Positions 3,051-63,764 of a stretch of DNA of 64,000 nucleotides are shown here, one piece after another (the stretch's first letter is position 1; each line of letters begins with the position of its first letter). The position numbers and the translations under genes are program-made. The notes beneath the pieces were generated by a model. That model did not search any database. It was not told the DNA's origin and saw only the letters and a program-made list of their open reading frames with translations. Origin of the DNA: Bugula neritina (Eukaryota > Animalia > Bryozoa); NCBI GenBank assembly GCA_964035545.1, contig OZ037768.1, forward strand, positions 12,533,675-12,597,674. The letters are read 5' to 3'.

Positions 3051-8276
<5,226 letters not shown>

Positions 8277-12029: not shown

Positions 12030-13405
12030 GTTGACAACTATGTCTGTCAGCTGAAGAGCAACCGGTTCTAGCAGTTGAGGAGAGACTAGCACCATACTTC
12101 AACAGGATCTCTGCTATGAGAGCATGGTTTTTTTGCCTGCACATGTGCATTGGGGTTAATCCGTCCTAAAATATGCCATAGCAGTAGCAACTCGATCAAA
12201 TATTCAATATTCAATACTCAAATAATATTTAATAAGAAAAGCTTTCAATTTTATGTTTTCCACTTCATGATAAGGATCATAGTTCACGAAAATAATCAGT
12301 TGGTATAACAGTTGCAGTTGCAACATTGCAACATTATGCTGCCGCACTGGCAGTTGATCACAAAAAGTAACTGTAACATCGCCAGCTGTTTGGAAAAAAT
12401 AGACTTACTTTGGTATAACAGTTGGGACTAGCACCATTTTCCAACAGCATCGATACAATATCACTGAGTCCATCCTTAACAGCAAGGTGTAGGGGGGTGA
12501 ACCCATCTTCCGACTCTGCGCTTACTCTTGCCCCATACTCTATCAAAGCACAGACGATATCCATGTCACCTTTTCCCACAGCATAATGTAGAGGCGTGTA
12601 GCCATTCTGTAAACACAATTACTAGTAGCCATTTAGTAGACTTTATGACTCATCAGAGATTAGAATAAAGAATATAATTAACAAGATGTAAGCACTCTTA
12701 CTAACATTATGATGAGGGTTTCTAGATACAAGAAAATATAACAATTCTTTTTATAGGTTATGTAGTTCAACAGTAAGCAGAACATTAACATGGCCGTCCT
12801 AAAATGTACCATGATGACTTTATAACAGATAATGTAAGGGCTAAATCTCTTTCTACTTCATGTTTTGAAAGAAAGTTGATCATATTAAGTTGACCACTAT
12901 GTCTGTCAGCTGAAGAAAAATCGGTTCCGGCAGTTGAGGAGAGACTAGCACCATACTTTAACAGGATCTCTGCTATAAGAGTATGGTTTTTCTGCATGTA
13001 CAAGTGTATTGGGGTCAATTCATCATAAAATGTACTATGGCATTGGTATATTAACCAAACTTCTGCTTCAATTTTTGACAAACATTTTACAATATTTACC
13101 TGACCACTATGTCTGTCAGCTGAAGAAAAACCGGCTCTGGAAGTTGAACAAAGACTAGCACCATACTTCAACAGGATCTCTTCTACAAGGATGCGATCTT
13201 CTTCCATACTTAGATGCATTGGTGTTACTCCATTCTAATGGGGAGCCTGAAAAGTCAAACACTAAACTTATACTTAGTAATTCCAAGATTTTTGTTTTTA
13301 GGTGAATTTTCAAAGTTGAAATTCTTCTGACAATCAGCTGTGCTGTAAACAGCCGGAATGGTCTTTTTCTTTTTTAGTGTGAAAACACTCTTGTACTTCA
13401 AGCCT
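12030..13405 (-). pseudogene. Rearranged ankyrin-family paralogue fragment: linker exon (~13275-13402), tandem ANK-type segment (12785-13240), 2-ANK exon (12409-12606), single-ANK exon (~12040-12165)
   Basis: The 12358-12618 ORF is nearly identical to exon 4239-4436, and 12785-13219 carries two TP(M/I)HL...EILLKYGASL units. Exon order differs from copies 1-3 and no ZU5 exons follow. Confidence 0.7.
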
Positions 13406-37867: not shown

Positions 37868-38141
37868 TGTTGAATGTGTTGCCATTGTGTTTAGTATTTA
37901 TTATGAAATACGTTATTGATTGCTGATTTACATTATCGAGCAAACTGACTGACTGATTTAATTATTTGATAATAAAATATTTATTAGAATGAAAAACAGC
38001 GTGATGGTTTTGTATAATATAAAACGGAAGAGAAGGGGTAAACAAGTATACAGCGATTCTAGTACAGCAATTAGTTAGTACATTGTCACGTGATTGTTAT
38101 GAATGTGATTAGCGATAGGATCGCATGATTGTTTCTCAACA
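37868..38141 (-). repeat. Copia 3' LTR
   Basis: Direct repeat of 42238-42511. Confidence 0.96.
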
Positions 38142-38148
38142 CGCCCCC

Positions 38149-41100
38149 TCAAGCATGTGATTCGATAGCTAGTAGCTCCAGGGCAATTCTGTGATTGGTT
38201 TTAGGCAAGCTTTTAGTCATGACATCGGCAGGGTTCTCTGCTCCTCTGATGTGGTGGTACGCTATGGTGGTTTGCTCTCTGACAAAGTGGAATCTAATGT
38301 CAATGTGTTTGCTCCTCTGATGTGAGTATGGTTGTCCCTTGGTGAGGGCAATGGCTCCAAGGTTGTCAGTGAAAAGTATGTTAGGGTTAGGCTGTTTCAT
38401 CTTGAATGTTTTGCACAAAGTCTGTAGGAATAACATCTCCTTTGTAGCTTCGGCTAATGCCATGTATTCGGCCTCGCATGATGACAAGGCCACTGTGGGT
38501 TGTCGTCGGCTGTTCCAACTTATAGGGGCTCCACCCAGTGTGAATACATATCCTGTTGTTGATCTTCGTGTGGAGGTTTCTCCACCCCAATCTGCATCCA
38601 CATAGCCCACTAGTTCTTGTTGATTGGGAGTGAATCTCAGATTGAATCCTTTTGTACCTTTAAGGTATCGTAGCAGTCGTTTCAAAGCAGCAATATGTGC
38701 AGGTCCAGGTCTTTCTAGGTGTTGGGAGAGCTTCCCAATGATCCATGCTAGGTCTGGACGTGTGGCGGTCATTAGGTATATGAGAGAACCTATAACTTGT
38801 CTGTAGGGGTAGTCCTTTGAACGCTCATATTCGTCGTCTGTTGCTTTTTCTAGTTGTAAGTCCTTTTCAGCAGGAGTATATACAGGGTTGCAATCTGCCA
38901 TATTGTAGGTGTTCAGCAGTGTGTCTATGTAGCGCTCCTGTGACATAGTGTACTGGTCTTCATGTCTCCTGAAGTCTATCCCCAGGAACCAGCTTAATTC
39001 TCCTCTATCATCCATGTTGAATTTTTGTTGCATCATAGATTTGGTTTGTGTGATTCTGTTGTCGTCTCGGCAGCAGAGAAGGATGTCATCAACCCAGAAA
39101 AGAATGATGATGTTGGCTGATTTATCTGAAGGGTCCTCTTTTGAGTATAGGCAAGGGTCTCCAGCACCAGGTGTGAAGCCTTGCTCCTTGAGGAAAGTGG
39201 TCAGTGTTTGGTGCCAATTGCGTCCGCTTTGTTTGAGGCCATAAATGGATTTGTTGAGACGACAAGAAAGCTTCCCTTGTTTGTTGGTTTCTTCGTACCC
39301 TTCAGGCTGTTGTAGATAAATTTCCTTATCGATTGGTGCATTTAGGTACGCTCCTTTAACATCTAGTTGATGTATTTTCATGTTTTCATTTGCTGCTTTC
39401 TGTAACAGCAATCTGATCGATGTGAATCTGGTGGTTGGACTGTAAGTTTCTTCATAGTCAACTCCTTGTATTTGTGAAAATCCTTTTGCTACATATCTAG
39501 CTTTATGTTGAGTTTCACCTGGCGTTTTTCCCTGTTTGAGGGTATAAACCCATCTGCCCTTGGTCTCTGTCCTGTCTTCAGGTAGCGGCTGGATAGACCA
39601 GGTGTTTGAATCACGTAGGGTGTTTATTTCCTTGTCCATGGCTTTCTTCCAGGCTTCTTTATCTTTTGAATTTACAGCTTCTTGGTAGGACTGTGGTATG
39701 TTTGCCATCAGTGAGCAAGCATAGTCAGTGTCTTCTATGTCATAGTCCTGTAGGTATGTAGGAGGCTTTCGTTTCCGTTCTGATTTACGTGGTCCAGGTT
39801 GGTTGGTGGCCTTTGCCGGATCTGGTGCAGGTTCTTGTGGTATGGTATTCTGAGTACCATTTCTGCTGTTTAGTGCGGGTCCTTGTGGCATGACGTTCAT
39901 TGCGTCATTTCCGCATATTTGTGCAGGTTCTTGTGGCATGGTATTCTGAGTACCATTTCTGCTGTTTTGTGCGGGTCCTTGTGGTATGACGTTCATTGCG
40001 TCATTTCCGCATATTTGTGCAGGTTCTTGTGGCATGGTATTCTGAGTACCATTTCTGCTGTTTTGTGCGGGTCCTTGTGGTATGACGTTCATTGCGTCAT
40101 TTCCGCATATTTGTGGTATGACATTTCTGGATGTAACAATTTTCTGATTAGGGGTAAGTATAAGGTAGCCTTGGGCCTTTGTGTTGACACCAAGATATAT
40201 GCCGCTTTGTCCGCGGTCACTGAGTTTTAACTTATTTCCCTCTGAAAAGAATGTGCATTGGGATCCAAAATTGTGAATTTTCCTCATGTCGGGTAGCGTG
40301 CCTGTGAATAACTCATAAGCTGTCTTTCCCGTCCGTCTCTGGTAGCTTCGGTTTCTTAGGTACTTAGCATGGTCAGCGGCAAAACTCCAGAAAGTCTTGG
40401 GGAGATTTGAATCTTTAAGTAGGCATCGTGCTGTGTCCATTATGGTGCGCCAAGTCCTCTCTGATTTACCATTCTGGTAGGATGAGTAGGGTGCTGTAGT
40501 GGTGTGTTTGATTCCCCTTTCGCGTAGCACAGCTTCAAATGGCTGTCCAAGGTACTCCATGCCGTTGTCAGTATGGATCTCCTTCACATTTCCTATAGGT
40601 GCCACATCTGCAATGAATTGCTTAAGTGCAGTGGTGGCATCACTTTTGTGGCGTATATTGTAGGTGAACAACATACTGGAAAATTCATCTATGAAGTTTA
40701 TTATGTAGTTTTGTCCTCCTCTAGCAGTTGGTGTGATGGGTCCGCATAAGTCAGAGTGTACACGTTGTAGAGGCTGTGTAGCTAGTTCAGGTTTATCGTC
40801 TTGTTTGTGAGGTTGTTTGGTGATTTTACTTTCGTCACATGTCTTGCATGCAATTTTTAATTTTGCTCCAGTTATGGTCATACCTGTTGTCACTTTCTCC
40901 AGCTCAATTATGTCATTAGTGTTCATATGACCCAGTGCCCTGTGCCAATCGGGCAGCGATTTTGCGGTGTTTATTGAGTCACCTGTATGGGTTGTCTTGA
41001 GGAAGTACAATCTGCCTTTGGGCATAATTGGAAAAGTTGTCCTGTCGACTGTCAGTATATTTTTCTCTCTAGAGAAATGTACTTTTGCCCCTTTTTGTGT

Positions 41101-42255
41101 GGCGGCGTGGACTGAAAATAGGCTTGTTGGTATTGTTGGTGCTAGCAAAGCGTCTTTTAGATGAATCTGCTGCTCCATGTTGTTGTCATCAGTAATAGTA
41201 AACTGTGCTGTGCCTTTGGCTACAGCCAGCTTGTTTGTTTTGCGACCATCTGCCATCTCTATGTAGTGGTTCTCAGGCGTGAAGCTCTTATCAAAACTAA
41301 TGAAGTTGTTCTCATTGTTCACCAGATGACTTGTCGCTCCGCAGTCCACCATGAGCAACTGTCCTCCTTGAGATTTATTTTGTGTGGCTATGTTGCATTG
41401 GTTTGATGTATTCACAGTGAAGGCATATGTGGCATTTGCCGATGAAATTTCAGTTTTACTTGTCTTCTTCTTTGTCCTGCAAACTGATTCGATATGTCCA
41501 GCTTTCTTGCAGTAGCTACAAAATAGTTTGTGCTTTGAGTAACAATCTGTTGTAGAATGATTGTTTTTACCACAAGCAGTGCACTGTTTATCACGTTTGC
41601 TAGTGGGTTTGAAATTGTCTCTTCCTTTAAATACCATGGCTGTAGATTGAGAGCACCTTGCCGACTCAGTAAGGTCAAAGTTTGTCAGAGCTGCTTTGAA
41701 CTCTGATAGAGTTTGGTTTTTGTCAAGTTGCGTATGTACTACAACAAAAGGCTGGTAGGATGTAGGTAATCCTTTCATGATCATTGCGATCACCAAATTG
41801 TCACTAATATTTTCCCCAGCAGACTTGAGGCCTGCTGAGTAGTTCTCAGCACGAATCAGGTAATCTGTAATGTCTTCTGTATCATTCATTTTTACAGTTG
41901 TAAGTTGTTCATAAAGGGTTAATATTCTAGGCTTTTGTGTACTTGCATAGTGTTCTTTTAGAATTTTGAATGCTTTTCTTCCATCGTCTTTGGCATCTCT
42001 CATCACAAGTTGAAGAGACTTTTCGTCTAAAACTTGTACAAGCTCAGCGTAAGCTCGCTTATTCTTTTTGTTGAAGTCAGCAGCGTTATCTTCTCCTTCT
42101 TCTTTGGGTAGAAGTGCGGTGTGTACTCCTTCATCTTGTGTGTACAAGTATGAAGTGAATCTTGTTTCCCAAATTGAGAAATTGTTTGAATCACCATCAA
42201 AGAGAAGCCTGTGTTTGAAGCCACTGGGCCCATAACCTGTTGAATGTGTTGCCAT
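38149..42255 (-). CDS. Copia Gag-Pol polyprotein (Gag with two CCHC knuckles, protease, integrase, RT, RNase H), 1368 aa
   Basis: CTACGKNNHSTTDC and CSYCKKAGHIESVC; VDCGAT; WHRALGH...CKTC, HSDLCGP, HTDNGMEY; KARYVAKGFSQ, YGLKQS, WVDD; YVDADWG...EAEY...ADVMTK. Domain order PR-INT-RT-RH. Confidence 0.97.
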   Translation of the reverse strand: MATHSTGYGPSGFKHRLLFDGDSNNFSIWETRFTSYLYTQDEGVHTALLPKEEGEDNAADFNKKNKRAYAELVQVLDEKSLQLVMRDAKDDGRKAFKILKEHYASTQKPRILTLYEQLTTVKMNDTEDITDYLIRAENYSAGLKSAGENISDNLVIAMIMKGLPTSYQPFVVVHTQLDKNQTLSEFKAALTNFDLTESARCSQSTAMVFKGRDNFKPTSKRDKQCTACGKNNHSTTDCYSKHKLFCSYCKKAGHIESVCRTKKKTSKTEISSANATYAFTVNTSNQCNIATQNKSQGGQLLMVDCGATSHLVNNENNFISFDKSFTPENHYIEMADGRKTNKLAVAKGTAQFTITDDNNMEQQIHLKDALLAPTIPTSLFSVHAATQKGAKVHFSREKNILTVDRTTFPIMPKGRLYFLKTTHTGDSINTAKSLPDWHRALGHMNTNDIIELEKVTTGMTITGAKLKIACKTCDESKITKQPHKQDDKPELATQPLQRVHSDLCGPITPTARGGQNYIINFIDEFSSMLFTYNIRHKSDATTALKQFIADVAPIGNVKEIHTDNGMEYLGQPFEAVLRERGIKHTTTAPYSSYQNGKSERTWRTIMDTARCLLKDSNLPKTFWSFAADHAKYLRNRSYQRRTGKTAYELFTGTLPDMRKIHNFGSQCTFFSEGNKLKLSDRGQSGIYLGVNTKAQGYLILTPNQKIVTSRNVIPQICGNDAMNVIPQGPAQNSRNGTQNTMPQEPAQICGNDAMNVIPQGPAQNSRNGTQNTMPQEPAQICGNDAMNVMPQGPALNSRNGTQNTIPQEPAPDPAKATNQPGPRKSERKRKPPTYLQDYDIEDTDYACSLMANIPQSYQEAVNSKDKEAWKKAMDKEINTLRDSNTWSIQPLPEDRTETKGRWVYTLKQGKTPGETQHKARYVAKGFSQIQGVDYEETYSPTTRFTSIRLLLQKAANENMKIHQLDVKGAYLNAPIDKEIYLQQPEGYEETNKQGKLSCRLNKSIYGLKQSGRNWHQTLTTFLKEQGFTPGAGDPCLYSKEDPSDKSANIIILFWVDDILLCCRDDNRITQTKSMMQQKFNMDDRGELSWFLGIDFRRHEDQYTMSQERYIDTLLNTYNMADCNPVYTPAEKDLQLEKATDDEYERSKDYPYRQVIGSLIYLMTATRPDLAWIIGKLSQHLERPGPAHIAALKRLLRYLKGTKGFNLRFTPNQQELVGYVDADWGGETSTRRSTTGYVFTLGGAPISWNSRRQPTVALSSCEAEYMALAEATKEMLFLQTLCKTFKMKQPNPNILFTDNLGAIALTKGQPYSHQRSKHIDIRFHFVREQTTIAYHHIRGAENPADVMTKSLPKTNHRIALELLAIESHA
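39826..40121 (-). repeat. In-frame 96-bp (32-aa) tandem repeat x3 in the copia INT-RT linker
   Basis: Units start at 39826, 39922 and 40018: QICGNDAMNVIPQGPAQNSRNGTQNTMPQEPA. Confidence 0.95.
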
Positions 42256-42511
42256 TGTGTTTAGTATTTATTATGAAATACGTTATTGATTGCTGATTTA
42301 CATTATCGAGCAAACTGACTGACTGATTTAATTATTTGATAATAAAATATTTATTAGAATGAAAAACAGCGTGATGGTTTTGTATAATATAAAACGGAAG
42401 AGAAGGGGTAAACAAGTATACAGCGATTCTAGTACAGCAATTAGTTAGTACATTGTCACGTGATTGTTATGAATGTGATTAGCGATAGGATCGCATGATT
42501 GTTTCTCAACA
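42238..42511 (-). repeat. Copia 5' LTR (contains the ORF start codon at 42255-42253)
   Basis: Direct repeat of 37868-38141; the PBS follows immediately. Confidence 0.96.
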
Positions 42512-42944
42512 AGATTAAAGAGAACTAAAGGTATGTTTTTTCTAAATAAAATAATTTAAATATCTTGTCAATTTGATTACTTAAATGGATTAAACTGTAT
42601 TTGTGATATGTTTTTAGTAATAAATGCCATCAATTTATATAGTTATCAATTTATATCAGTTTTAGTTATAGATATTATCAATGTTATTAGCAAAAGTTTT
42701 TGTTGTGTATATAAGTTTTGTTGTCAATTATTAAATTAAGTTTTACTAGTGTTGTCTATCTTTTAGACTTCACGTTGGTGTTTAGAATAATAAAGTAAAT
42801 ACATCATCAGTGAACTTTATTTTCAAAGTTTCTGAATTGCTACAAGTACACACTGGAAATCTCTAGGTTTTAGCTATTTTCACGATTTAGCTGCTATAAT
42901 GAATATGGATTTTTGCTTAAAACTAGTAAAATATCAATAAATAC

Positions 42945-43215
42945 TGTAGTGAGGACGTAATACGCGCGTCCCCCGCATTCTTTCAGCCTATCAAAATGCG
43001 TCACGTGATAGGCCTTAGTTAGTAGTAGTTTTGCAGTAGAGAGAGCGTGTTAACTAAGCGAAGATGTAATCTCTAATCGGTGTACGTGCTGTATCTTTTA
43101 TATAATTAGTAGTAAATAAACTTGGAAACTTTTACCTAAATATTTTATTGGTGTAGATAAATAGACATAATTACAAGCTAGGAACCCACGCATAGTAGTT
43201 ACATAAATTACTACA
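42945..43215 (+). repeat. Gypsy 5' LTR
   Basis: Direct repeat of 50247-50517. Confidence 0.96.
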
Positions 43216-43276
43216 GTGGTGGCAGCGGTGGGATTTCTAGCTACTGTATGAGAACAATGAGAAGTATTAGAACATC

Positions 43277-46200
43277 ATGGACGAAGGAGTAACTTCAATG
43301 GAAGGAGGTGAGCAGAACATTATTATAGGCCCTCTCGGAGCTGGAGAGGAGGTATATAGGAACACGTTGGAGGTTCCCGTGTTCACAGGCCGCGAGGATA
43401 TTGAACAATTCGTTCAAGAATTCCGTGAAACTGCCGCCATTGCAAGATGGCCGCCAAGAGTAACCCTTACAAAACTGCGGATGGCACTGACGGGAGAAGC
43501 CAAGCCGTACGGGTGGAAGCCTAGCATAAACGGGATCATTGCTACACTACGGGCCCGTTTTGGCATGCCCGTTGCCGTCGCCAAGTCCAGACTGCGAGGA
43601 TTACTCCGCAAGACATGTACACCGCTTTCTGACCACGCCACTCTGGTGCAGAGACTGGCACGGACCGCGTATAGCGATCTGCCAGAAACACACAGACGGC
43701 ACTACACATTCGAAGCCTTTGTACAGTCTCTCAATTCTTTGGACTTCCACCACCAGTTACAAGCCAAGGGAGTGACCACCATTGAGGCTGCAATCCAAGA
43801 GAACAAGGCCTACGCTGGAGCCGAACGACTCTATGAGACGGAGGAGGCCACGCCCCAGCCCTCTAGGGAACCAGACCATCCGGTCCGCATAGCTGCCGCG
43901 ACCACTAAAACCCCCATAGAGATAGAGATAAGCCGCTTGATGACTAGACTGGGACAATTGGTGGCGACGATAACATACAACCACTCAAGGAAGAGTAAGA
44001 GGACGGCAGCAAAACCCCCCAGACCTATGATGCGACGCTGGGAAAGCGGCAATCAGGGACACCGCCACCTGAGCGGCCCACGATTCAAACGGCAGCAGAA
44101 ACCACAACCTCCCCGGAGACCCCCAGAGCTCCGCGGACACACACAGAGAGAAAAACGGGATGGGTGTCGCCAGGAGCCCGTACGGGCCCAGCGACACACC
44201 CCCCGTCAATGGCAAACACCTCGCCGAACCAGCCAACCAGGTCGACCACGAGACCCCTTCTCTCTGCCTCTCACCAACCGCTTCAGTCCGTTACCAGTAA
44301 TGGAACAGACCAGCGAGGCCCCTCAGGGCATCGGGGAGGATCAGAACACCTCCCCGCAAGGAAACTCTCACCGGCCCCGCAAACCGCGGAACAAACGGGC
44401 ACAGCCCCGTTCGGCCGAGACCGAGCACGCTGGGGGAATACGGGTACAACCTCACGGAGGCAGCTACTTCTTGCCAGGGAAGGTGGCCGGTAAAGCTGTC
44501 ACCTTCCTGTTAGACTCCGGGTGTACCACTAATATCCTCAGCCGTCGGGTCTTCGACACCCTCCCTCTCAAGGAGAGGGGAGCCTTAGCTCCCTATACCA
44601 GGGAACCGGGCACCCTAGCTGACGGGTCACGGATTCCTTTCTACGGTATCATAGAATTGGCTGGGCGCGTCCGCGACCAAGCCATTCAGGAAACCTTCGT
44701 CATCAGCCCACTGGAGGAAGATGCCATACTAGGGATGCCGTTCTTGAAGAGACACGGGTGCCATATTGACTTTAGCAAGTCAGCCATGCTAATGGGCGGC
44801 AAAGAGCTCACCTGTGTCGACAAGTTCGGTCGTCCTCTAGCGGGAGGTGTGCAGGTAGTACGCAACTGTACTATACCCGGCCGCTCCCGGGCTACCGTTC
44901 ACTGCAGAGTGAACAATAGCCAACTCTCGGGGCTAGGGGTTGTCGAAGGTGCGCACTCTAGAATCCAACTCGCCAGCAGTCTTAACCGGCTGACTGACCG
45001 AGGAGAGATCTTGGTGCAGTGTGTCAACCCCTTCTCCGAAGCGGTACAACTACCGTCAGGATCCATGCTGGGTCGCTTCCACTCCATCCAGGAGGAGGAT
45101 ATAGGGCCGTCGCTGGGAGCTGCGACGGAAGGTCCCCAACAGAGCCCGTCAGTTAGGCGGGGGACCGTCCCATCACACGTCAAAGAGCTATACCAGGCAG
45201 CGTGTAACGGCTGCACGGGCAACGTGGAACGCCAGACTATGGCTCAGTTGCTACGTGATTATAGCGACGTGTTCAGCAGTGGGGACCATGACGTCGGCCT
45301 GACCACGGCCGTCCGTCATGAGATACCGCTGGCTGCAGGGACTACCCCTATTCGGCAGCCCACCAGGAGGCTGGGACCCGAGAAGGAAAAGGAGGTAAGC
45401 CAACAAGTCCGGGATCTTTTGGACCGCGGCCTCATCGAGCCAGCGCATAGCGCGTGGAGTTCACCGGTCGTTCTGGTCCGAAAGAAAGACGGCAGTTGGC
45501 GGTTCTGTGTGGATTATCGCAAGCTCAATAGCGTGACCATACAGGACGCCTACCCCTTACCCAGGATCGACGAATCTCTGGACGCCTTAGCCGGCAGCAA
45601 GTACTTCAGTACGCTAGACTTGTTGAGCGGCTATTGGCAGGTCCCCCTCAGCCCAGACGCCCAGGAGAAGGCGGCGTTCATCACGCGGGACGGCTTATGG
45701 AAGTGGAAAGTCCTCCCCTTCGGACTGACTTCCGCCCCCGCCACGTTCCAGCGGCTCATGGAACAGGTCCTCAGTGGACTCCACTGGAAGACACTGCTAG
45801 TATACCTCGACGACGTCATCGTGATCTCCCCAGACTTTCAGACGCACGTCAGCCGTCTGCGGGAGGTCTTCGATCGACTCCGAGGCGCCAATCTGAAGCT
45901 CAAACCCTCCAAGTGCGCTCTCTTGCAGCCAGAGGTGAAGTACCTGGGGCACATCGTCGGCCGCCACGGCGTGGCGACGGATCCTGAAAAGGTACGAGCT
46001 ATAGAAGATTGGATAACCCCCCAGGATTTGACCGGGCTACGGGCTTTCCTGGGGCTGGTAGGGTATTACAGGCAATACATACCAGACTTTGCGGGGGTAG
46101 CACAGCCGTTAAACCGGCTCACCGCAAAGGGGGTGACCTGGCAGTGGACTCCCGTCGAACAGAGAGCGTTCGACTGCCTCAAAGGCCGCCTGCTGGAGGC

Positions 46201-48736
46201 CCCTATCCTGGCCTATCCAGACCCTGCCCTGGAGTACATCCTCGATACTGACGCCAGTGACCAAAATGTCGGCGCTGTGCTGTCCCAGGTGCAGGAGGGC
46301 CGCGAAGTAGTCGTGGCCTACTACAGTAAGTCTCTCTCGCCCACTGAACGAAATTACTGCACTACCCGAAAGGAATTGTTGGCAGTAATCAAGTCAGTGA
46401 AGCATTTCAGACCTTATCTCTACGGCAGGAAGTTCCGCTTGCGGACCGACCACGCCTCCTTGATTTGGTTATGTAAGAGAGCAGAACCGTCCAGCCAAGT
46501 CGCCCGATGGCTCGAGGTCCTGGCCGAGTTCTCTTACCGGATCGAACACCGACCCGGTAAGAAACACGGCAATGCTGATGGACTGAGCCGGCGACCGGAC
46601 GAGGGGTGTAAACAGTGCCTCAACATCGAGAAGAGGGACGGAGGTCCTCCAAAATCCGAGTTGAGAGCACTGAACCACTCTGAAACGGAGTATGACTGGG
46701 ACCAGGGTCAACTCCTACAAAAGGCCACTACGCCCCCGGAGGCTATCCAACGCCTCCGTGCCAATCCTGTCTTGGCTGATAACGTTAGGGAGCTACGAAG
46801 ACTCCAGGAGGACCTCCCTGGAGTGGTAGCCGACGTATATCGTGCCAAAAAGGAGGGGCGACGACCCAGTGAAGAACAACTGCGGCAGGGATGCACCGAG
46901 TTACGGTCGTACTGCCAACGTTGGGACTCCCTGCGGATCGGGCCAGATGGTCTGCTGACCATCACAGTGGCTGCTCACAACAACCAGTACGGCAGGAACA
47001 GGGTGATCTGCCCAGCCGCCATACGCCGGGAGTTAGTATGGGACACCCACAAGCAAGCCCACGCCGGGGTGAGCAGGGTGCTCTCCAAGTTACAACTCCG
47101 GTGGTACTGGCCCGGCATGGAGCGTGAGGTGCGGCGTAGAGTCAAACAATGCGAAATCTGCCAGGCCAGCAAGCATGGCCGTCTCCCTGGTGAAGCGGGA
47201 CGGCGTCGGCTATATGCTGGAAGGCCATGGCAGGTGGTAGCTATCGACCTAGTCGGACCCATGCCCGTCACCCCCAGAGGAAACAGCTGGATCCTAGTAT
47301 TAACCGACCACTTTACACGGTGGGCGGATGCCCTGGCTATTCCAGATGCGTCCGCCCCCACGGTGGCCAGGGTGCTGGACCAAAATGTATTCTGCTATCT
47401 TGGACTACCTGAGCAAATACATTCGGACCAGGGAGCTCAATTCCAGTCCCAACTGTTGAGCGACCTCTGCCGCCTCTGGGGAGTAAACCAAAGCAGGACC
47501 ACCCCATACCATCCTCAGGGCAACGGGGTGGTGGAACGCAACAATCGCATGTTGGGCGATGCACTGCGCAGTCTGCTCCTCGGCCGGGGTCAGGAGGAGT
47601 GGGATACGGTACTACCGCAAGTCATGCGGGCCTACCGTAGTACACCACACACCAGTACGGGGGAAACCCCTAACCTCCTGATGCTCGGTCGAGAGACGCG
47701 AGTGCCTGACCACCTCACATACCACATCCCAGAGCAGGACTATACCATCCACGAGTATGCCAGTAAATTGATAGAGGACCTGAGGGCCGCACACGAAATA
47801 CTGCGGGCGAAGCAGTGGCAGGTACGGCGAGAGGACTCTCAGGAACCACCCCTCTATCGAACTGGGGACTGGGTGTGGATGATCAACTACCGTAGGCGTC
47901 GAGGACAAGCGGCTAAGCTCCAGCCTAAGTTTGTGGGACCCTACGTAGTAGTTGAGGCTATGCCCAATCATACGTACAAGTTGGAGCGATCTGGACAGGT
48001 CTCTGTCCAGAACGAAACCCGCTTGAAACCGTATTGGGCTAGCCCAGGAGCAGCAGGAGCAGCCCCCCCGTTGTTGGAGCCCAGGAGGCAGACAGTAACG
48101 CGTGGGCGGCAACGGCATGGACCAGAATACGAAGTGGTTGTGCCGCGGGGAGAGGACTTGGTGAGGCAGGAGACGCCACTCCCACCAACGGAAGTGCGCC
48201 CACCGCCCCCAGTACCAAGTCTACCCCCACCACTTCCGGTTCCGCATCCGCGTCCGGAAGTGCAAAACCCCCCCGTGGGAGGGGCTCCATCTGGAGACAA
48301 CAGCGGAGAGGGGAATACCATCACCAATGGCGGGCCAGAAACACCACAGGTGGAGCAAAATAGCCCACCAGTGAGTACGCCGCCCCAACCAACAGCTACG
48401 ACTCCCTCTCCAGCTGATGCGTCACCTCCCCTGGAACGGGGACAGCGTACTAGACAACCCCCAGCATACCTTAAAGATTTCATATGTGACCGTGTTACAA
48501 ACGGCAGTTATGAAAGTCTAGCTGGGCGCCGTACGGAAGGACTGGCAACAAAGCGTGGGAGTTGTGAACACCACGGAAATCTCAACTTTTGCGAAGGCGG
48601 AGTAGTAAACAAAACTACTACGCCCGGGGCAAATAGTTCCAGCCGTGCGCAACAACCACGCTGCCCAGTCTTTTCGTACGCTGACGTTGTCAAGGGAAGA
48701 CGCATTCAAACTCAATCCACGGACATCCAAGCTTGA
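43277..48736 (+). CDS. Gypsy Gag-Pol polyprotein, single ORF of 1819 aa
   Basis: Gag capsid-like N-terminus; protease LLDSGC; RT WSSPVVLV...RFCVDYRKLN...PFGL...YLDD; RNase H DTDAS...ELLAV...TDH...NADGLSR; integrase H-H-C-C, IDLVGP, HSDQG, VERNNR, GPY. Order PR-RT-RH-INT. Confidence 0.97.
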   Translation: MDEGVTSMEGGEQNIIIGPLGAGEEVYRNTLEVPVFTGREDIEQFVQEFRETAAIARWPPRVTLTKLRMALTGEAKPYGWKPSINGIIATLRARFGMPVAVAKSRLRGLLRKTCTPLSDHATLVQRLARTAYSDLPETHRRHYTFEAFVQSLNSLDFHHQLQAKGVTTIEAAIQENKAYAGAERLYETEEATPQPSREPDHPVRIAAATTKTPIEIEISRLMTRLGQLVATITYNHSRKSKRTAAKPPRPMMRRWESGNQGHRHLSGPRFKRQQKPQPPRRPPELRGHTQREKRDGCRQEPVRAQRHTPRQWQTPRRTSQPGRPRDPFSLPLTNRFSPLPVMEQTSEAPQGIGEDQNTSPQGNSHRPRKPRNKRAQPRSAETEHAGGIRVQPHGGSYFLPGKVAGKAVTFLLDSGCTTNILSRRVFDTLPLKERGALAPYTREPGTLADGSRIPFYGIIELAGRVRDQAIQETFVISPLEEDAILGMPFLKRHGCHIDFSKSAMLMGGKELTCVDKFGRPLAGGVQVVRNCTIPGRSRATVHCRVNNSQLSGLGVVEGAHSRIQLASSLNRLTDRGEILVQCVNPFSEAVQLPSGSMLGRFHSIQEEDIGPSLGAATEGPQQSPSVRRGTVPSHVKELYQAACNGCTGNVERQTMAQLLRDYSDVFSSGDHDVGLTTAVRHEIPLAAGTTPIRQPTRRLGPEKEKEVSQQVRDLLDRGLIEPAHSAWSSPVVLVRKKDGSWRFCVDYRKLNSVTIQDAYPLPRIDESLDALAGSKYFSTLDLLSGYWQVPLSPDAQEKAAFITRDGLWKWKVLPFGLTSAPATFQRLMEQVLSGLHWKTLLVYLDDVIVISPDFQTHVSRLREVFDRLRGANLKLKPSKCALLQPEVKYLGHIVGRHGVATDPEKVRAIEDWITPQDLTGLRAFLGLVGYYRQYIPDFAGVAQPLNRLTAKGVTWQWTPVEQRAFDCLKGRLLEAPILAYPDPALEYILDTDASDQNVGAVLSQVQEGREVVVAYYSKSLSPTERNYCTTRKELLAVIKSVKHFRPYLYGRKFRLRTDHASLIWLCKRAEPSSQVARWLEVLAEFSYRIEHRPGKKHGNADGLSRRPDEGCKQCLNIEKRDGGPPKSELRALNHSETEYDWDQGQLLQKATTPPEAIQRLRANPVLADNVRELRRLQEDLPGVVADVYRAKKEGRRPSEEQLRQGCTELRSYCQRWDSLRIGPDGLLTITVAAHNNQYGRNRVICPAAIRRELVWDTHKQAHAGVSRVLSKLQLRWYWPGMEREVRRRVKQCEICQASKHGRLPGEAGRRRLYAGRPWQVVAIDLVGPMPVTPRGNSWILVLTDHFTRWADALAIPDASAPTVARVLDQNVFCYLGLPEQIHSDQGAQFQSQLLSDLCRLWGVNQSRTTPYHPQGNGVVERNNRMLGDALRSLLLGRGQEEWDTVLPQVMRAYRSTPHTSTGETPNLLMLGRETRVPDHLTYHIPEQDYTIHEYASKLIEDLRAAHEILRAKQWQVRREDSQEPPLYRTGDWVWMINYRRRRGQAAKLQPKFVGPYVVVEAMPNHTYKLERSGQVSVQNETRLKPYWASPGAAGAAPPLLEPRRQTVTRGRQRHGPEYEVVVPRGEDLVRQETPLPPTEVRPPPPVPSLPPPLPVPHPRPEVQNPPVGGAPSGDNSGEGNTITNGGPETPQVEQNSPPVSTPPQPTATTPSPADASPPLERGQRTRQPPAYLKDFICDRVTNGSYESLAGRRTEGLATKRGSCEHHGNLNFCEGGVVNKTTTPGANSSSRAQQPRCPVFSYADVVKGRRIQTQSTDIQA

Positions 48737-48801
48737 ACGCTGAGTATGATTACAAATACCGGGTTCTCAGGTAAGCTTGCTCTGAGCTAACATTTCCACT
48801 C

Positions 48802-49890
48802 ATGGAAACCAGTCTACCATCAGTCAGTTCTGATTTAATCGCCTTGATTGAATCACAACTACTGGGGACTGAGTCTTACGTGAAAGGCGACGAGAACATA
48901 AAGATGGCCGACGATCTACTAGATCTGGAGCTTGACACTATGTCTCTCTGTCAGTCTACACGACACGACTCAGTCCCTCGAGTGCTATCTGAAAAGATGT
49001 ATGACTCCCAGACTAGTAACAGTCGGTTGTCATCAGAATTATGGTGTAAAGATCATATCCGATCTAACAGTAATTCTGCTCTTTTAGATACCGCTCTCTC
49101 TCCTCTATCTGGTGACATGCCGTCACTAGAAATGGCTTGGAACGAGGAACCCGTTCCCACTACTCTTCCGGAGGCACTCCTACAACAATCATGCTGGGTT
49201 ACAACAGATACGGAAACACTGATACGAGAGCACAAAGGAGACGACCAATGCACCACCTGCCGTTTATGCCAGCTTCACTTCACTACCCCACGAAGACTTC
49301 GAGTTCATATTCCCCAACATTATTTCACCACCTTTTGTCCCTGTGGTGAATATAGTTACCACAGGGACTACATCCTCCGTCACCAACGAACCATGGGATG
49401 CCATGTTGGACACCTGTTCGAAGTCGACGAACCCTCCTTCCCACAATTCCTCAATCTCATCCGACCGTTCATATCAGACCCAGTTCGATATGAACGGCTG
49501 CGCCAGGAGTTCCCCGCACCCAGGACCATCACACAGGGACCCTGCCCTAAACCACCCGGATATAGGAAACCACGCATATCCCATTCCTCACCCCCCGCAC
49601 GCACAGTGCCCCGCCCCGACTCCATACCAAGAGTCGTGTTACGACGCATCGATATACCACAGCGATGGCGTCCCTCCCCCCCTGTCTCCCCAAGGCCGTC
49701 TCGTAAACGACGTTGGCCATCTTCATCCCCCAATCGACACTCTGCCCCCGCCAGGAATCTAGGCGAGGCAGAAGAGCGGATACGAGAATTAGAGAAAGAG
49801 GTGCAAAGACTGACACCGAGAATCTCCGCCGCCGCATCAGAACTCCGGGCCCTCTCTGCCTCTGTAGCCCGAATGAAAGGAAGTGCTTGA
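48802..49890 (+). CDS. Retrotransposon accessory ORF2, 362 aa: tandem C2H2-type zinc fingers, Pro/Arg-rich region, C-terminal coiled coil
   Basis: Uninterrupted ATG-TGA ORF between pol and the PPT. CRLC-x12-H-x3-H and CPC-x12-H-x5-CH; PSRKRR; heptad-like EAEERIRELEKEVQRL...SELRALSASVARMK. Confidence 0.85.
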   Translation: METSLPSVSSDLIALIESQLLGTESYVKGDENIKMADDLLDLELDTMSLCQSTRHDSVPRVLSEKMYDSQTSNSRLSSELWCKDHIRSNSNSALLDTALSPLSGDMPSLEMAWNEEPVPTTLPEALLQQSCWVTTDTETLIREHKGDDQCTTCRLCQLHFTTPRRLRVHIPQHYFTTFCPCGEYSYHRDYILRHQRTMGCHVGHLFEVDEPSFPQFLNLIRPFISDPVRYERLRQEFPAPRTITQGPCPKPPGYRKPRISHSSPPARTVPRPDSIPRVVLRRIDIPQRWRPSPPVSPRPSRKRRWPSSSPNRHSAPARNLGEAEERIRELEKEVQRLTPRISAAASELRALSASVARMKGSA

Positions 49891-50246
49891 AGATGATGTC
49901 CCTCCTCTCCCTATCCGTGATGGTACCGCAGGTGGTGCCCCATTACAGACCCTTCTCACGCCAGTGCTCACAAACAATTACTCAGTGTAACAATATAGTA
50001 ACCTACCAGTATACAGCTCTACCTCTACAAACTATTCCCTTATAGTGCCTCCCGCCGGTGCCATTGTATATTTACTGTTATATTTTTTTTATATATGTAT
50101 ATGTTTCTTACTACTGTACATAGCCATGTTTTTCTGTATGTGCCACACGCTCTCTCAGTTTTTATATATATATAGTTTATAACATTTTATGTTCGAATTA
50201 TTGTGTCTGTGTTATCAGAAAGTAGGGCTTTCTGCTGGGGGGGCGG

Positions 50247-50517
50247 TGTAGTGAGGACGTAATACGCGCGTCCCCCGCATTCTTTCAGCCTATCAAAATG
50301 CGTCACGTGATAGGCCTTAGTTAGTAGTAGTTTTGCAGTAGAGAGAGCGTGTTAACTAAGCGAAGATGTAATCTCTAATCGGTGTACGTGCTGTATCTTT
50401 TATATAATTAGTAGTAAATAAACTTGGAAACTTTTACCTAAATATTTTATTGGTGTAGATAAATAGACATAATTACAAGCTAGGAACCCACGCATAGTAG
50501 TTACATAAATTACTACA
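50247..50517 (+). repeat. Gypsy 3' LTR
   Basis: Direct repeat of 42945-43215. Confidence 0.96.
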
Positions 50518-51039
50518 ATACACCTAAATAATCACCGTTCTCGTTAACTTTGTTTGATTTCCCATGGTTTTTCCAAATTATTCAGCTACTTTCTATTGCT
50601 GACTGTTATGGTTTGTTCGTAATAGTCCGCAATCAAAAGTAGCTGAATAATCAGGAAAAAACATTGGAAATCAAACAAAATTAAAAAGAACTTTAATTAT
50701 TTACATGTATTTATTGATATTTAATATTTTACTAGTTTTGGGCAAAAATCCATATTCATTAGCAGATAAAACGTGAAAATAGCTAAAAAACTGAAGATTT
50801 TCAGTGTGTACTAAATTAAGTAAAATGACCCAACTGTTGAAACTAATTTATTTTAAATATATGCTAGAATTTTTACACATTATCATAAAGATCTTTCTCA
50901 CCTTTTTTATAAAAATTCTGAATTGTTCTGTTAACCCAGTTAGCCACAATTAATGCTCTGCATGTGTATTAATTATTGGATTGATGTTCTTCACTCACAA
51001 TATTTAAAAACTTTTTACATGCATTGGTGACTACATTGC

Positions 51040-60625: not shown

Positions 60626-61874
60626 TCAGAAGTCAGAAGTATTTTCCCTTTTCGCTTTTGAGACGAAAGCAAAATATCGGCGCAGCCTCGCTGTAACAAT
60701 TCTCGTCATATTCTTTTCTACTATTCTGTCCAAAGTCTCAACGTCTAAAGAGCACATAACATATATCAGATTAGTTATGTATTAAAGTTTTCTTGCTATG
60801 CTTTGATACAAGTTTACAATCCTAATATTTTTATATAAAGAGGGACAATGCATTAATAATGCTACTATTTAAAGTGTAAGCAGAAGCTAGTTTCCCATTT
60901 CTAATCATATTGCATGTTACTATTAGCTTCAGAAGATATCAGAGATGTTCTTAAAAAAGACTGCTCAATGAATATAGTGGCTATACCCATAGCCAGCTGC
61001 ATTAACTAGAAGAAGGAAGTATTTTAAGGCAATGAACAGTTGAGATTGTTTATACACTTCTGAAGGTATTAAAGTCTGGAGATATGCTAGACAGTTTGTA
61101 TAAATTTGTATAAATATCAGCATGTGACATGCTATAACAACCTGTTTCTAAACCTGGTAACTTTACACTGCTTGTAAAAATAACAGCTTTTCAATACTGA
61201 TGAATCCTAGGGTGTTGACAGCTCAAAATTGGCAAAAGCTAAAGTTGATAACAAAGTTTACTATTTAATACTACATACCACAAAGGCTGTCATTCATTGT
61301 CTGCTTATGTTCCTGCCATGTTACACCATCATCACTTGCAATGACAATGGTTTCCTGTTCATCTTGACTAGCAGCAACATCTATTATGACAGGGCTGAAA
61401 AGGAAAAACACAGGTGCCAGTTTTAGAAAACAGTTATACTTTTTACATGTACTGTGTTTGAATAAAGATGTAATAAGGTTTAATGAAAACATGAAAAGGT
61501 AATAAAAGTAACATAAAGATTTTCAGTTTCTCCCACTAAACTCAATGACAAGTGTGTGAATAAAAAATTACCCAATAAAGGTGGCACAAGCAGGTTCTAG
61601 AGAGAGAATGGGGGAGATGACAGATTCACTGTTATTAAAAGAGGGCATCACTCCTTTCTCAAGGAGACGGCACACAATTCTCATTGGTCCGGTTGCCACA
61701 CCAGGTGGGATGGTAAAATGGACTTTCTCTCGACATCCCTGGAAGACTCCTCCTCTGGCATCCACCAGGAAACTGATACGGAATCTAAAGTGAGATGCAT
61801 ATACCATGTGAACACAGCTGATAATGAAGTAGCTGGTAGTTAATTTATGTGTGCATGTGTGCGTGCGTGCGTGC

Positions 61875-61949
<75 letters not shown>

Positions 61950-63764
61950 TTATTGCAGTAGCAGTTTTCTTATATATATAGAAAAGCTTCTACTGTAATT
62001 ATTAAAACAAACTCAATAGAACTGAGTAATGTTTAGCAACAGTTTTAACTGCAACAATTCTTCCAAGTTAATTATCATTACCTTTTCAATTTGAGGAAAA
62101 AAAACTGATTGTATATAACAAATTTACAAAATGTCTTTCATAAACCGCTTTTGAACTACATACAGCCAAAGAATGAGTAACATGCTCATTGCATTTCTTG
62201 TCAATGTGATATTTAGAAAAAATAGATCAACTTGCTTCACATATAGTTGGGTACATTATATACTGAACGTACTTGGTGACTCCAGAGTTTTTACTTTTCA
62301 TTGAATTGTCAGAGTGTAAATCCTCCTGAGAATGAAGTGTGCTGTGGGCCCTCTTACAAGGTTTTCTCTTTTTCAGAGTAAAAACACTCTTGCATTTGAG
62401 GCCTAAAATGAATAGAATAAACTACTAGTATGGGTGTGTGTTGGTGTTTGTGGGTGTGTGCATGTTCGTATGTGCTTGCGTGTAAGTCGCTGCGTGTTCG
62501 TAAAGAACTGATATATATTTACATACATTGATGGCTAAATTATTGCTTGGAACTCACTAGGCCTCTAACAATAAAGTAAAATTAGCTATGGGTTTTACCA
62601 TTATGCAAAACCATAAATTAGTAATATTCGATTCGAAAAATTCTTAACAATTTAATTCTGCAAATAATTGCCAGTATGAAACAAAGTAATTGGTGAGTTA
62701 ATAATCAGATCCTTACCAGCAGAGGCGATGCTACGTAAAGCCCGCCTGATTTTTGCTGTTCGAGGTTTTGTCTCAACGCTCTGCATAACAGACACCTACA
62801 TGGAAATTATTGCATTGCTATTGTACAATCACATTTAAATATGTTTTCATAGATTGACACTTCAATAGGCGTTTATAATATATAGAATAATGATATAATG
62901 CACTCCAAATACACTAATTCAATATTCATAATGCTGTGACCAATTCATTAAGTGAAGAGTGCCTAACTAAAAAACCAGTTACAATAAAATGTCTTAAATA
63001 AACAGAATAATTGAAAATTTAACATTCTTTTGGCTGTTACACTGATTCACACAAAATTAACGACTTGTATATCTCAATGCTTAGCGAAACATGACCAATT
63101 TCTAGTAAGTTACTCCAAATATTTTAAAGCTCCATCTAATCTCAGTCAGCATCCGTAAATTTCATTGATGTTATATTTACTTGTTAGCTGACTCAATAAA
63201 TCAATAATTGACCAAAAACAGAACTGACATGCATTGGGAAAACGCTTATATCAAAACGAGTAAAATGATACGCGTTCAGCTCGTGACTTAGAAATAGACT
63301 GTGATCCAGATAAACACTAGACAGAGCCAGATTGATTACTAGCTTCCTCACATGTGCAATCAGCTTGTGAGACAAAGTTTAGAAATGGTTTGATCAACTC
63401 ATTGACTAATGGCCCAGAAGATGTTGTAGCAATCTTTTGCTGACACAAATTTAAATGTCAGACTAAGTCAATGTGAACACAAAATTAGCACACAATCAAA
63501 TATGTTTAGTCCAATATAAATTGCAATATTGAATACTACAATGTTATGATGCTAATCTCAAACAGTAGATGATTTTATAACAGATAATGTAAGGGCAATG
63601 TCTACTTCTGCTTCATGTTTTGACAAAGATTTTACAATATTTACCTGACCACTATGTCTCTCAGCTTTAGAAGTTGTAGGGAGACTAGCACCATACTTCA
63701 AGAGAATCTCTGCTGTGAGAGCATGGTTCTTTTGCCTGCACAGGTGCATTGGGGTTAATCCGTC
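60626..63764 (-). CDS. Mini-ankyrin (ANK + ZU5), copy 3, inverted; 5' part lies beyond the window. Exons: 63764-63645, 62795-62717, 62402-62273, 61784-61572, 61394-61279, 60744-60626
   Basis: Reverse complement of the copy 1 exons, with identical lengths, GT-AG sites, an open frame and the same stop. The microexon acceptor is deleted. Confidence 0.83.

Follow-up and report, generated by a model that had tools for sequence, protein, structure and literature searches.

The locus analysed here, on a 64,000-nt stretch of Bugula neritina DNA (the window, whose coordinates are used throughout), raises the question of what a Ty3/gypsy retrotransposon does with an additional intact gene located behind pol. 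This gene, ORF2 (48802-49890, + strand), encodes 362 aa in one uninterrupted sense frame that begins 65 nt after the pol stop codon, differs from the pol frame and is present as a single copy within the window; coordinates and length reproduce those of an initial annotation made from the sequence alone. The surrounding element, with all its features on the + strand, is a Ty3/gypsy LTR retrotransposon, displaying the corresponding LTR ends, target-site duplication, primer-binding site directly behind the 5' LTR and a domain order running from protease through reverse transcriptase and RNase H to integrase. Each of its LTRs (42945-43215 and 50247-50517) measures 271 nt and has TG...CA ends; the two differ at 0 positions, and a 4-bp duplication, ATAC (42941-42944 and 50518-50521), borders the pair. 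The 5' LTR includes TATAA at 43101 and AATAAA at 43115. As initially annotated, the identical LTRs and the 4-bp duplication mark the insertion as young. The primer-binding site (43217-43235), which we take to resemble the 3' end of tRNA-Leu, is followed by a single gag-pol frame (43277-48736, 1819 aa) in which Pfam identifies protease, reverse transcriptase (RVT_1-type), RNase H and integrase in gypsy order, the latter comprising H2C2, core and SH3-like parts ahead of a Pro-rich tail. A 65-nt spacer (48737-48801) separates gag-pol from ORF2, and the region before the 3' LTR (50221-50246) ends in a G-rich polypurine-type tract.

A pattern search detected no intact CCHC knuckle in Gag and no CCHC pattern in the entire gag-pol polyprotein. 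A knuckle-like stretch at ~44030-44090 (gag-pol residues 253-270) retains the His and 0/3 of the Cys of a CCHC finger, and was likened by eye to a decayed knuckle. CpG observed/expected ratios within 43277-50517 are 0.80 for pol, 0.87 for ORF2 and 1.34 for the LTR, compared with 0.35 in window positions 1-36000; the element thus shows no CpG depletion, which agrees with an insertion that is young or unmethylated.

The initial annotation had portrayed ORF2 as a zinc-finger protein with an acidic N-terminus, a basic linker and a C-terminal coiled coil, and this architecture was recovered throughout. Residues 1-115 (48802-49146) contain 20 D/E versus 8 K/R and are predicted to be disordered (pLDDT under 50). 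They precede a folded region holding both fingers (residues 120-245, 49159-49536), a Pro/Arg/Ser-rich basic linker predicted to be disordered (residues 246-315, 49537-49746), with 17 K/R, 18 P and the RKRR of a PSRKRR patch, and a C-terminal segment (residues 316-362, 49747-49887) with a heptad pattern and a long predicted helix (316-361) that is a predicted coiled coil. An envelope protein, or an errantivirus-like ORF3, was considered as a candidate and ruled out by hydropathy, in agreement with the initial annotation: the highest 19-residue hydropathy in ORF2 is 0.93, with no transmembrane or signal-type segment in what is a hydropathy scan rather than a dedicated predictor, and 48 of 50 representative relatives likewise stay under 1.6 on the same measure.

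Relatives of ORF2 were collected through a word-based protein search (74 relatives among 6039 candidates, 51-77% identical, plus one 100% fragment), an exhaustive search (177 matches at E<=0.001, the best 150 of 177 being listed) and a profile search (134 matches among 1794 candidates, 120 of 134 listed). The finger-bearing domain is contained in 214 of the 284 collected proteins, which were reduced to 50 representatives under 50% identity. P0097, in which 33 short repeats match residues 20-53, was left out as a low-complexity match. Atlas clusters placed the whole protein with zf-C2H2 at 0.84-0.88, values taken as leads only, and the domain alone at 0.94-0.95.

Some ten full-length relatives besides the query span ORF2 from start to end, sharing its start Met and 56-87% pairwise identity, and Met occupies the query's start position in 47 of the 51 matches that reach the N-terminus. 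Identity of the ten to the query amounts to 81% over residues 151-210, 46% over 101-150, 55% over 246-315 and 63% over 316-360, and nine of them keep all eight zinc ligands. Truncation or a frameshift marks many of the other matches, a condition that old insertions would be anticipated to show, and protein matches are open frames by construction. None of the outcomes that the initial annotation named as fatal to its reading was encountered: full-length relatives exist, linkage to pol recurs in distant ones, the Cys/His residues persist and pN/pS stays below 1. Residues 1-100 (48802-49101) show 68% identity among full-length relatives, above that of the linkers, though predicted to be disordered; their conservation might reflect a binding motif, or an RNA or DNA signal superimposed on the coding frame.

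In simulations of neutral change to 65% identity, the frame stayed open in 0/500 runs and all ligands were kept in 9/500. At the DNA level, 22 of 40 ORF2 differences were synonymous and 18 non-synonymous, with 0 stops, against an expected synonymous fraction of 0.286 (p=4e-4), which yields a pN/pS of ~0.33 for a small, non-independent sample of 40 listed out of 253 differences in contigs from three runs of one study. Most of these differences derive from one diverged contig with a 1-nt deletion, each change being scored singly, so this below-unity ratio is support and not a measurement. The pol control gave 15 synonymous among 32 listed differences (pN/pS 0.45), and contig depths in the three runs do not equate to copy numbers. 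Searches for the DNA of relatives returned 3 stretches for the ORF2 query in viral contigs, none confirmed, and none for the integrase query; in metagenome contigs they returned 78 stretches, none confirmed, and 0 matches to a degenerate pattern. Judged by these comparisons, ORF2 is a maintained, conserved gene under selection, not cargo. A host zinc-finger exon captured recently and carried along passively, the fate that the initial annotation had feared for its own reading, accords poorly with a simulated frame that never stays open, with ligands kept in 9/500 runs versus 9/10 observed relatives, and with the pN/pS value, and we consider it very improbable.

The two fingers belong to a larger conserved domain of ~125 aa, covering approximately residues 120-245, in which they are flanked by W and VD positions and by helices. 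Finger 1 follows the annotated C-x2-C-x12-H-x3-H spacing (C153, C156, H169, H173); the second, annotated as atypical, is likewise present and can be refined to C-x-C-x12-H-x5-C in the window's clade (C179, C181, H194, C200), with C200 kept in 10/10 full-length close relatives and H201 not kept. The Cys/His pattern persists in the 50 diverged representatives (C153 in 49, C156 in 50, H169 in 49, H173 in 48, C179 in 49, C181 in 48 and H194 in 47), as do W132 (40/49), G182 (45), V208 (46) and D209 (46). All 47 representatives with H194 have a C (28) or an H (19) 3-13 residues further on, a range wide enough to make the eighth-ligand count alone a loose test.

This domain departs from a classical C2H2 array in several respects. 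Pfam scores finger 1 as zf-C2H2_4 with E=1 and 10.7 bits against a cut-off of 27, no ORF2 match lies above cut-off, an NCBIfam search with ORF2 gave no match, and among the 50 scanned relatives P0111 alone passes a Pfam zf-C2H2-type cut-off. Finger 1 shares its spacing with Kaiso/ZBTB33, ZBTB20, SALL4 and CTCF, whose fingers the predicted pair overlays with rmsd 2.4-2.8 over ~50 residues. Unlike in classical arrays, however, the fingers are joined by a five-residue link without TGEKP instead of the canonical linker, the canonical second finger is replaced by a C-x-C form, the last ligand varies, and ~70 further conserved residues are predicted to pack with the fingers.

Structure prediction for the full-length protein (35 close sequences) was folded only at residues 116-251 and 317-361, and the resulting model matches generic helices only. 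The 129-residue domain (32 diverse sequences) was predicted with pLDDT 94 and pTM 0.84, five models agreeing. Comparison with 48,161 solved chains gave none at Z>=5; the best match, Kaiso (Z 3.5, rmsd 2.8, 57/129 residues), covers model residues 24-80 only, and 8 of the 10 first rows are DNA-bound C2H2 arrays in which only the finger pair is matched. At E<=0.001, Foldseek retrieved nothing from either PDB or BFVD, the top row for the full model being a dsRNA-binding finger protein (E=1.6), and the family profile matches single solved fingers (best E 3e-7). The finger-pair overlay and the profile matches together mark the core of the predicted fold as a tandem finger pair within a larger conserved unit absent from the searched libraries.

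The exposed surface of the fingers is also constrained among the 50 distant relatives. In the finger-1 helix, K/R occupies position +2 in 44/50, +3 in 34/50 and +5 in 32/50, and the finger-2 helix carries K/R at +1 (40/50) and D/E at +2 (43/50). Position +6 of finger 1 is K/R in 9/50 and otherwise mostly hydrophobic or variable; many sequence-specific fingers differ from the family at this position. The conserved helix surface suggests a conserved ligand. Around the domain, a net acidic stretch precedes it in 15 of the 19 representatives long enough to score, a net basic stretch follows it in 20/24, and near the C-terminus a heptad score, admittedly crude, is reached by <=2/50 shuffles in 20/24. 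The recurrence of these acidic, basic and heptad features makes the transcription-factor-like build a family trait.

The earlier proposal of an element-encoded nuclear regulator thus stands in part: ORF2 is conserved, selected, borne by the element and built like a nucleic-acid-binding nuclear factor, and the specific role continues to be a proposal. The product likely enters the nucleus and is predicted to bind DNA via the double-zinc-finger domain. Guided by the geometry of the fingers, by the basic helix, by the acidic stretch ahead of the domain and by lineages that retain this domain with no integrase match, we tentatively read ORF2 as a DNA-binding trans-activator or anti-silencing factor of its element, a reading that we regard as plausible and still short of probable. 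The protein would be expressed from a spliced subgenomic RNA via the site at 48770/48771, imported into the nucleus through the RKRR patch and dimerised through the C-terminal coiled coil, and it would target the LTR or nearby element DNA, where the acidic N-terminal region would activate transcription; in forms carrying the domain at the end of a polyprotein, the element's protease would release it as a free acting protein. Such a factor would resemble the accessory genes of complex retroviruses, a switch for the element's own expression. Counting against DNA binding, Z 3.5 over ~50 of 129 residues is a weak match, Foldseek adds none at E<=0.001, position +6 of finger 1 departs from many sequence-specific fingers, and C2H2-type fingers also bind RNA and protein, as does the dsRNA-binding top Foldseek row, though at E=1.6. 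Counting against trans-activation, one relative (P0281) is fused behind integrase, and the animal precedent tested in this slot, CERV of the Caenorhabditis elegans element Cer1, is needed for RNA export, not transcription (PMC10309623).

CERV gives shape to a different reading, in which ORF2 is a CERV- or Rev-like RNA factor, an oligomeric nuclear protein produced from a spliced RNA, binding the unspliced genomic RNA and licensing its export or packaging. CERV, reported from nematodes alone, is a 517-aa protein whose mRNA has 5 exons; it combines H, M and G-protein-like domains with a putative C4 finger (PMC10309623). It occupies the same slot as ORF2 and combines similar parts (leucine zipper, KRKK-type NLS, Cys finger), and its last exon shares the polyprotein frame, as the domain does in P0281. 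ORF2 adds a candidate splice motif in the 65-nt spacer, an Arg/Ser/Pro-rich linker after the domain, one NES-like string (residues 35-44) and a Gag whose lack of an intact CCHC knuckle leaves room for another RNA binder. NES-like strings are, however, common by chance, the finger pair overlays DNA-bound arrays best, and the acidic N-terminal region recurring in 15/19 representatives suits activation better. CERV, moreover, is reported to have no homologues outside nematodes and has a different fold, the two proteins being compared by description only (PMC10309623): in ORF2, one 362-aa frame encodes a tandem CCHH plus CxC-H-C/H domain, and its role is predicted whereas that of CERV has been demonstrated. 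We accordingly rate an RNA-export or packaging role as unlikely, while keeping it in serious consideration.

The candidate splice signals bear on both the trans-activator and the RNA-factor readings. The spacer motif TTCTCAG/GTAAG at 48770/48771 fits a short acceptor pattern that occurs at two places in the element and is, at the same time, its only 8-of-9 donor (1.7 expected in shuffles). A further donor with 7 of 9 consensus letters (43305-43313, first intron base 43308) lies 31 nt behind the gag ATG and is one of 10 in the element. Used as an acceptor, 48770/48771 may generate a usual subgenomic RNA, in which the gag frame would run into a stop codon 12 nt ahead of the ORF2 ATG, so that translation of ORF2 would have to initiate separately. 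Used as a donor together with the acceptor at 49867, the most pyrimidine-rich in the element, it may instead lead to ORF2 being spliced out. Both routes are post hoc candidates. The best donor (48771) and the 49867 acceptor bracket ORF2 with near precision, and the intron so defined would begin 34 nt behind the pol stop codon; as the Ala-Ser run at this acceptor is not kept in relatives, the bracketing is likely due to chance.

Association with pol, as judged from protein sequences, takes several forms among the relatives. In P0281 (1460 aa), a single ORF runs from RNase H and integrase through an SH3-like domain and a long linker to the finger domain and a C-terminal helix; identity to the window's element is 57.5% for the Pol part (577 columns) and 29% for the finger domain. 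P0125 matches the integrase tail encoded in the window and extends from there into the finger domain, in P0177 and P0199 a motif resembling such a tail precedes the domain in frame, P0176 passes from pol tail to ORF2 in one protein, and P0129 joins integrase and ORF2 pieces. P0183 aligns with P0199 starting at residue one, and P0196 is tied to pol only via its kinship to P0199. In P0171/P0221 and in P0206, a protease 37-39% identical to that of the window shares one frame with the finger domain, the proteases of the two lineages sharing 39% identity; neither lineage yielded an RT or integrase match, and we read these proteins as putative non-autonomous derivatives. Some fusions could be accidents of decayed copies. 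Longer fused forms did not turn up among the 4902 candidates of a dedicated search, a weak one in that it also missed known long members.

The in-frame integrase fusion, absent from the window (separate ORF, other frame) and present in P0281, is the basis for viewing the domain as an integration-targeting module, ancestrally at the integrase end, that would tether the integration complex to selected DNA or chromatin and act in trans where it forms a separate ORF. Besides the single ORF of P0281, this view draws on the upstream integrase-tail-like motif of P0125, P0177 and P0199 and on the alignment of P0183 with P0199. P0281 is nevertheless the single complete integrase fusion, with none longer recovered by the weak search above, and ~450 low-complexity residues lie between its integrase and finger domain. 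Members of the window's clade retain a start Met of their own (47/51), and the protease-plus-domain lineages show no integrase match. No chromodomain appears among the Pfam matches of Pol, ORF2 or P0281. A targeting role hence strikes us as rather improbable, and the persistence of protease and domain with no RT or integrase match agrees more with a free protein than with a tether for integrase. Part of the probability belongs to roles beyond trans-activation or anti-silencing, RNA export or packaging, integration targeting and passive cargo.

The phylogenetic distribution of these forms was inferred from 61 domain rows (50 representatives and 11 chosen extras) under LG+G4. Nine pol-linked rows, marked by us, fall on both sides of the best-supported deep split (99/99), and a quick mixture-model tree agrees on this; the tree, taken as unrooted and with most deep forks open, implies no order of events. 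Three of 20 clusters looked up have organism-named members, exclusively from bryozoans: Watersipora subatra (two) and Bugula neritina (one). The Watersipora gene models, XP_067940964.1 and XP_067944745.1, are annotated with isoforms, and the Bugula protein is KAF6040922.1. One Watersipora protein contains two domain copies, and the other shares its N-terminal region with the Bugula protein. A tandem double domain is seen in P0083, P0215 and P0111, the first two representing one Watersipora gene model.

These gene models with the domain in both species are what favours a host exon as the source of ORF2. The named models, however, fall at three places in the tree, and pol-linked members flank the 99/99 split, so that tree, simulation and pN/pS jointly leave a recent passive capture largely refuted; an ancient host origin of the domain, followed by function in the element, is possible. 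Movement in the opposite direction, with domestication of the finger domain into host genes, is likely from the gene models and no more than that, as gene models can also be called on elements. Combining these strands, an apparently bryozoan-associated gypsy lineage might encode its own transcription factor, whose domain moves between Pol-end, separate-ORF and protease-fused forms, trans-activates the element and has been domesticated more than once, a composite scenario that we hold to be doubtful as a whole. If true, it would describe a lineage-specific zinc-finger family born from a retrotransposon.

Extra genes behind pol have been reported in other invertebrate elements. The family-specific ORF3s of bdelloid rotifer LTR retrotransposons (PMC5408684) comprise env-like, GDSL esterase, DEDDy exonuclease, coiled-coil and transmembrane types, are typically products of spliced messages and, in TelKA2n, persist after loss of most of pol; several thus parallel ORF2 as extra non-Env genes after pol, and neither "zinc" nor "finger" appears in the paper's main text (PMC5408684). 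Accessory genes also occur in the env-less gypsy-type elements of the Drosophila MDG1 group (sORF1/sORF2), whose sORF2, sometimes located downstream of pol, encodes a 63-107-aa transmembrane fusogen-like protein (PMC11952523), in contrast to ORF2, which has no hydrophobic segment.

Domains appended to integrase form a second group of comparators. Chromovirus chromodomains are modules at the integrase C-terminus. Ginger1 bears OTU, Ulp1 and PHD extensions behind a gypsy-like integrase (PMC2836005). P0281 resembles both in having an extra domain behind the integrase GPY/F-SH3 region, though the domain itself is different; unlike these modules, ORF2 stands as an ORF of its own within the window's clade, and its domain survives in lineages without an integrase match. 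Non-Env third ORFs and extra post-integrase domains are therefore already known, and the double-finger domain is new to the libraries searched. New as well, and beyond what the initial annotation noted, are its fusion behind integrase in P0281, its protease-fused form in two lineages and its presence in gene models of two bryozoan genomes. A literature search over titles and abstract openings, a scope outside which Repbase and most subscription journals lie, found no such domain and no C2H2-type ORF3 in animal gypsy elements, and 0 papers on bryozoan LTR retrotransposon gypsy.

To our knowledge, few animal LTR retrotransposons possess an accessory gene whose regulatory role has been put to the test; CERV is one such gene. 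Zinc-finger proteins are best known as a host weapon against retroelements, and an element-encoded finger protein, if the trans-activator reading of ORF2 is true, would turn the host's tool to the advantage of the element. Small size, a high-confidence prediction and dozens of diverged relatives make the ligand of the domain directly findable, and its fused, split and host-gene forms constitute a natural series for the origin of accessory genes from polyprotein tails and for host recruitment.

The genomic setting of the element offers some further observations. The window DNA is AT-rich and of animal type, and its host exons at 6723-7349 (+), 61568-61969 (-) and 12785-13234 (-) include two with ZU5 domains, one per strand, besides ankyrin repeats. 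The gypsy element is nested in a MITE-like repeat with terminal inverted arms (42868-42937 and 50721-50788, 93% complementary) and an internal palindrome (50517-50711), and contigs of three runs join 42944 to 50625, as insertion-free related copies would. An intact, young copia element (37868-42511, - strand) lies 433 nt upstream of the gypsy element, with identical 274-nt LTRs, a 5-bp target-site duplication (AGATT) and one 1368-aa ORF, in which a 48/96-nt tandem repeat (39825-40115) stands in frame between integrase and RT.
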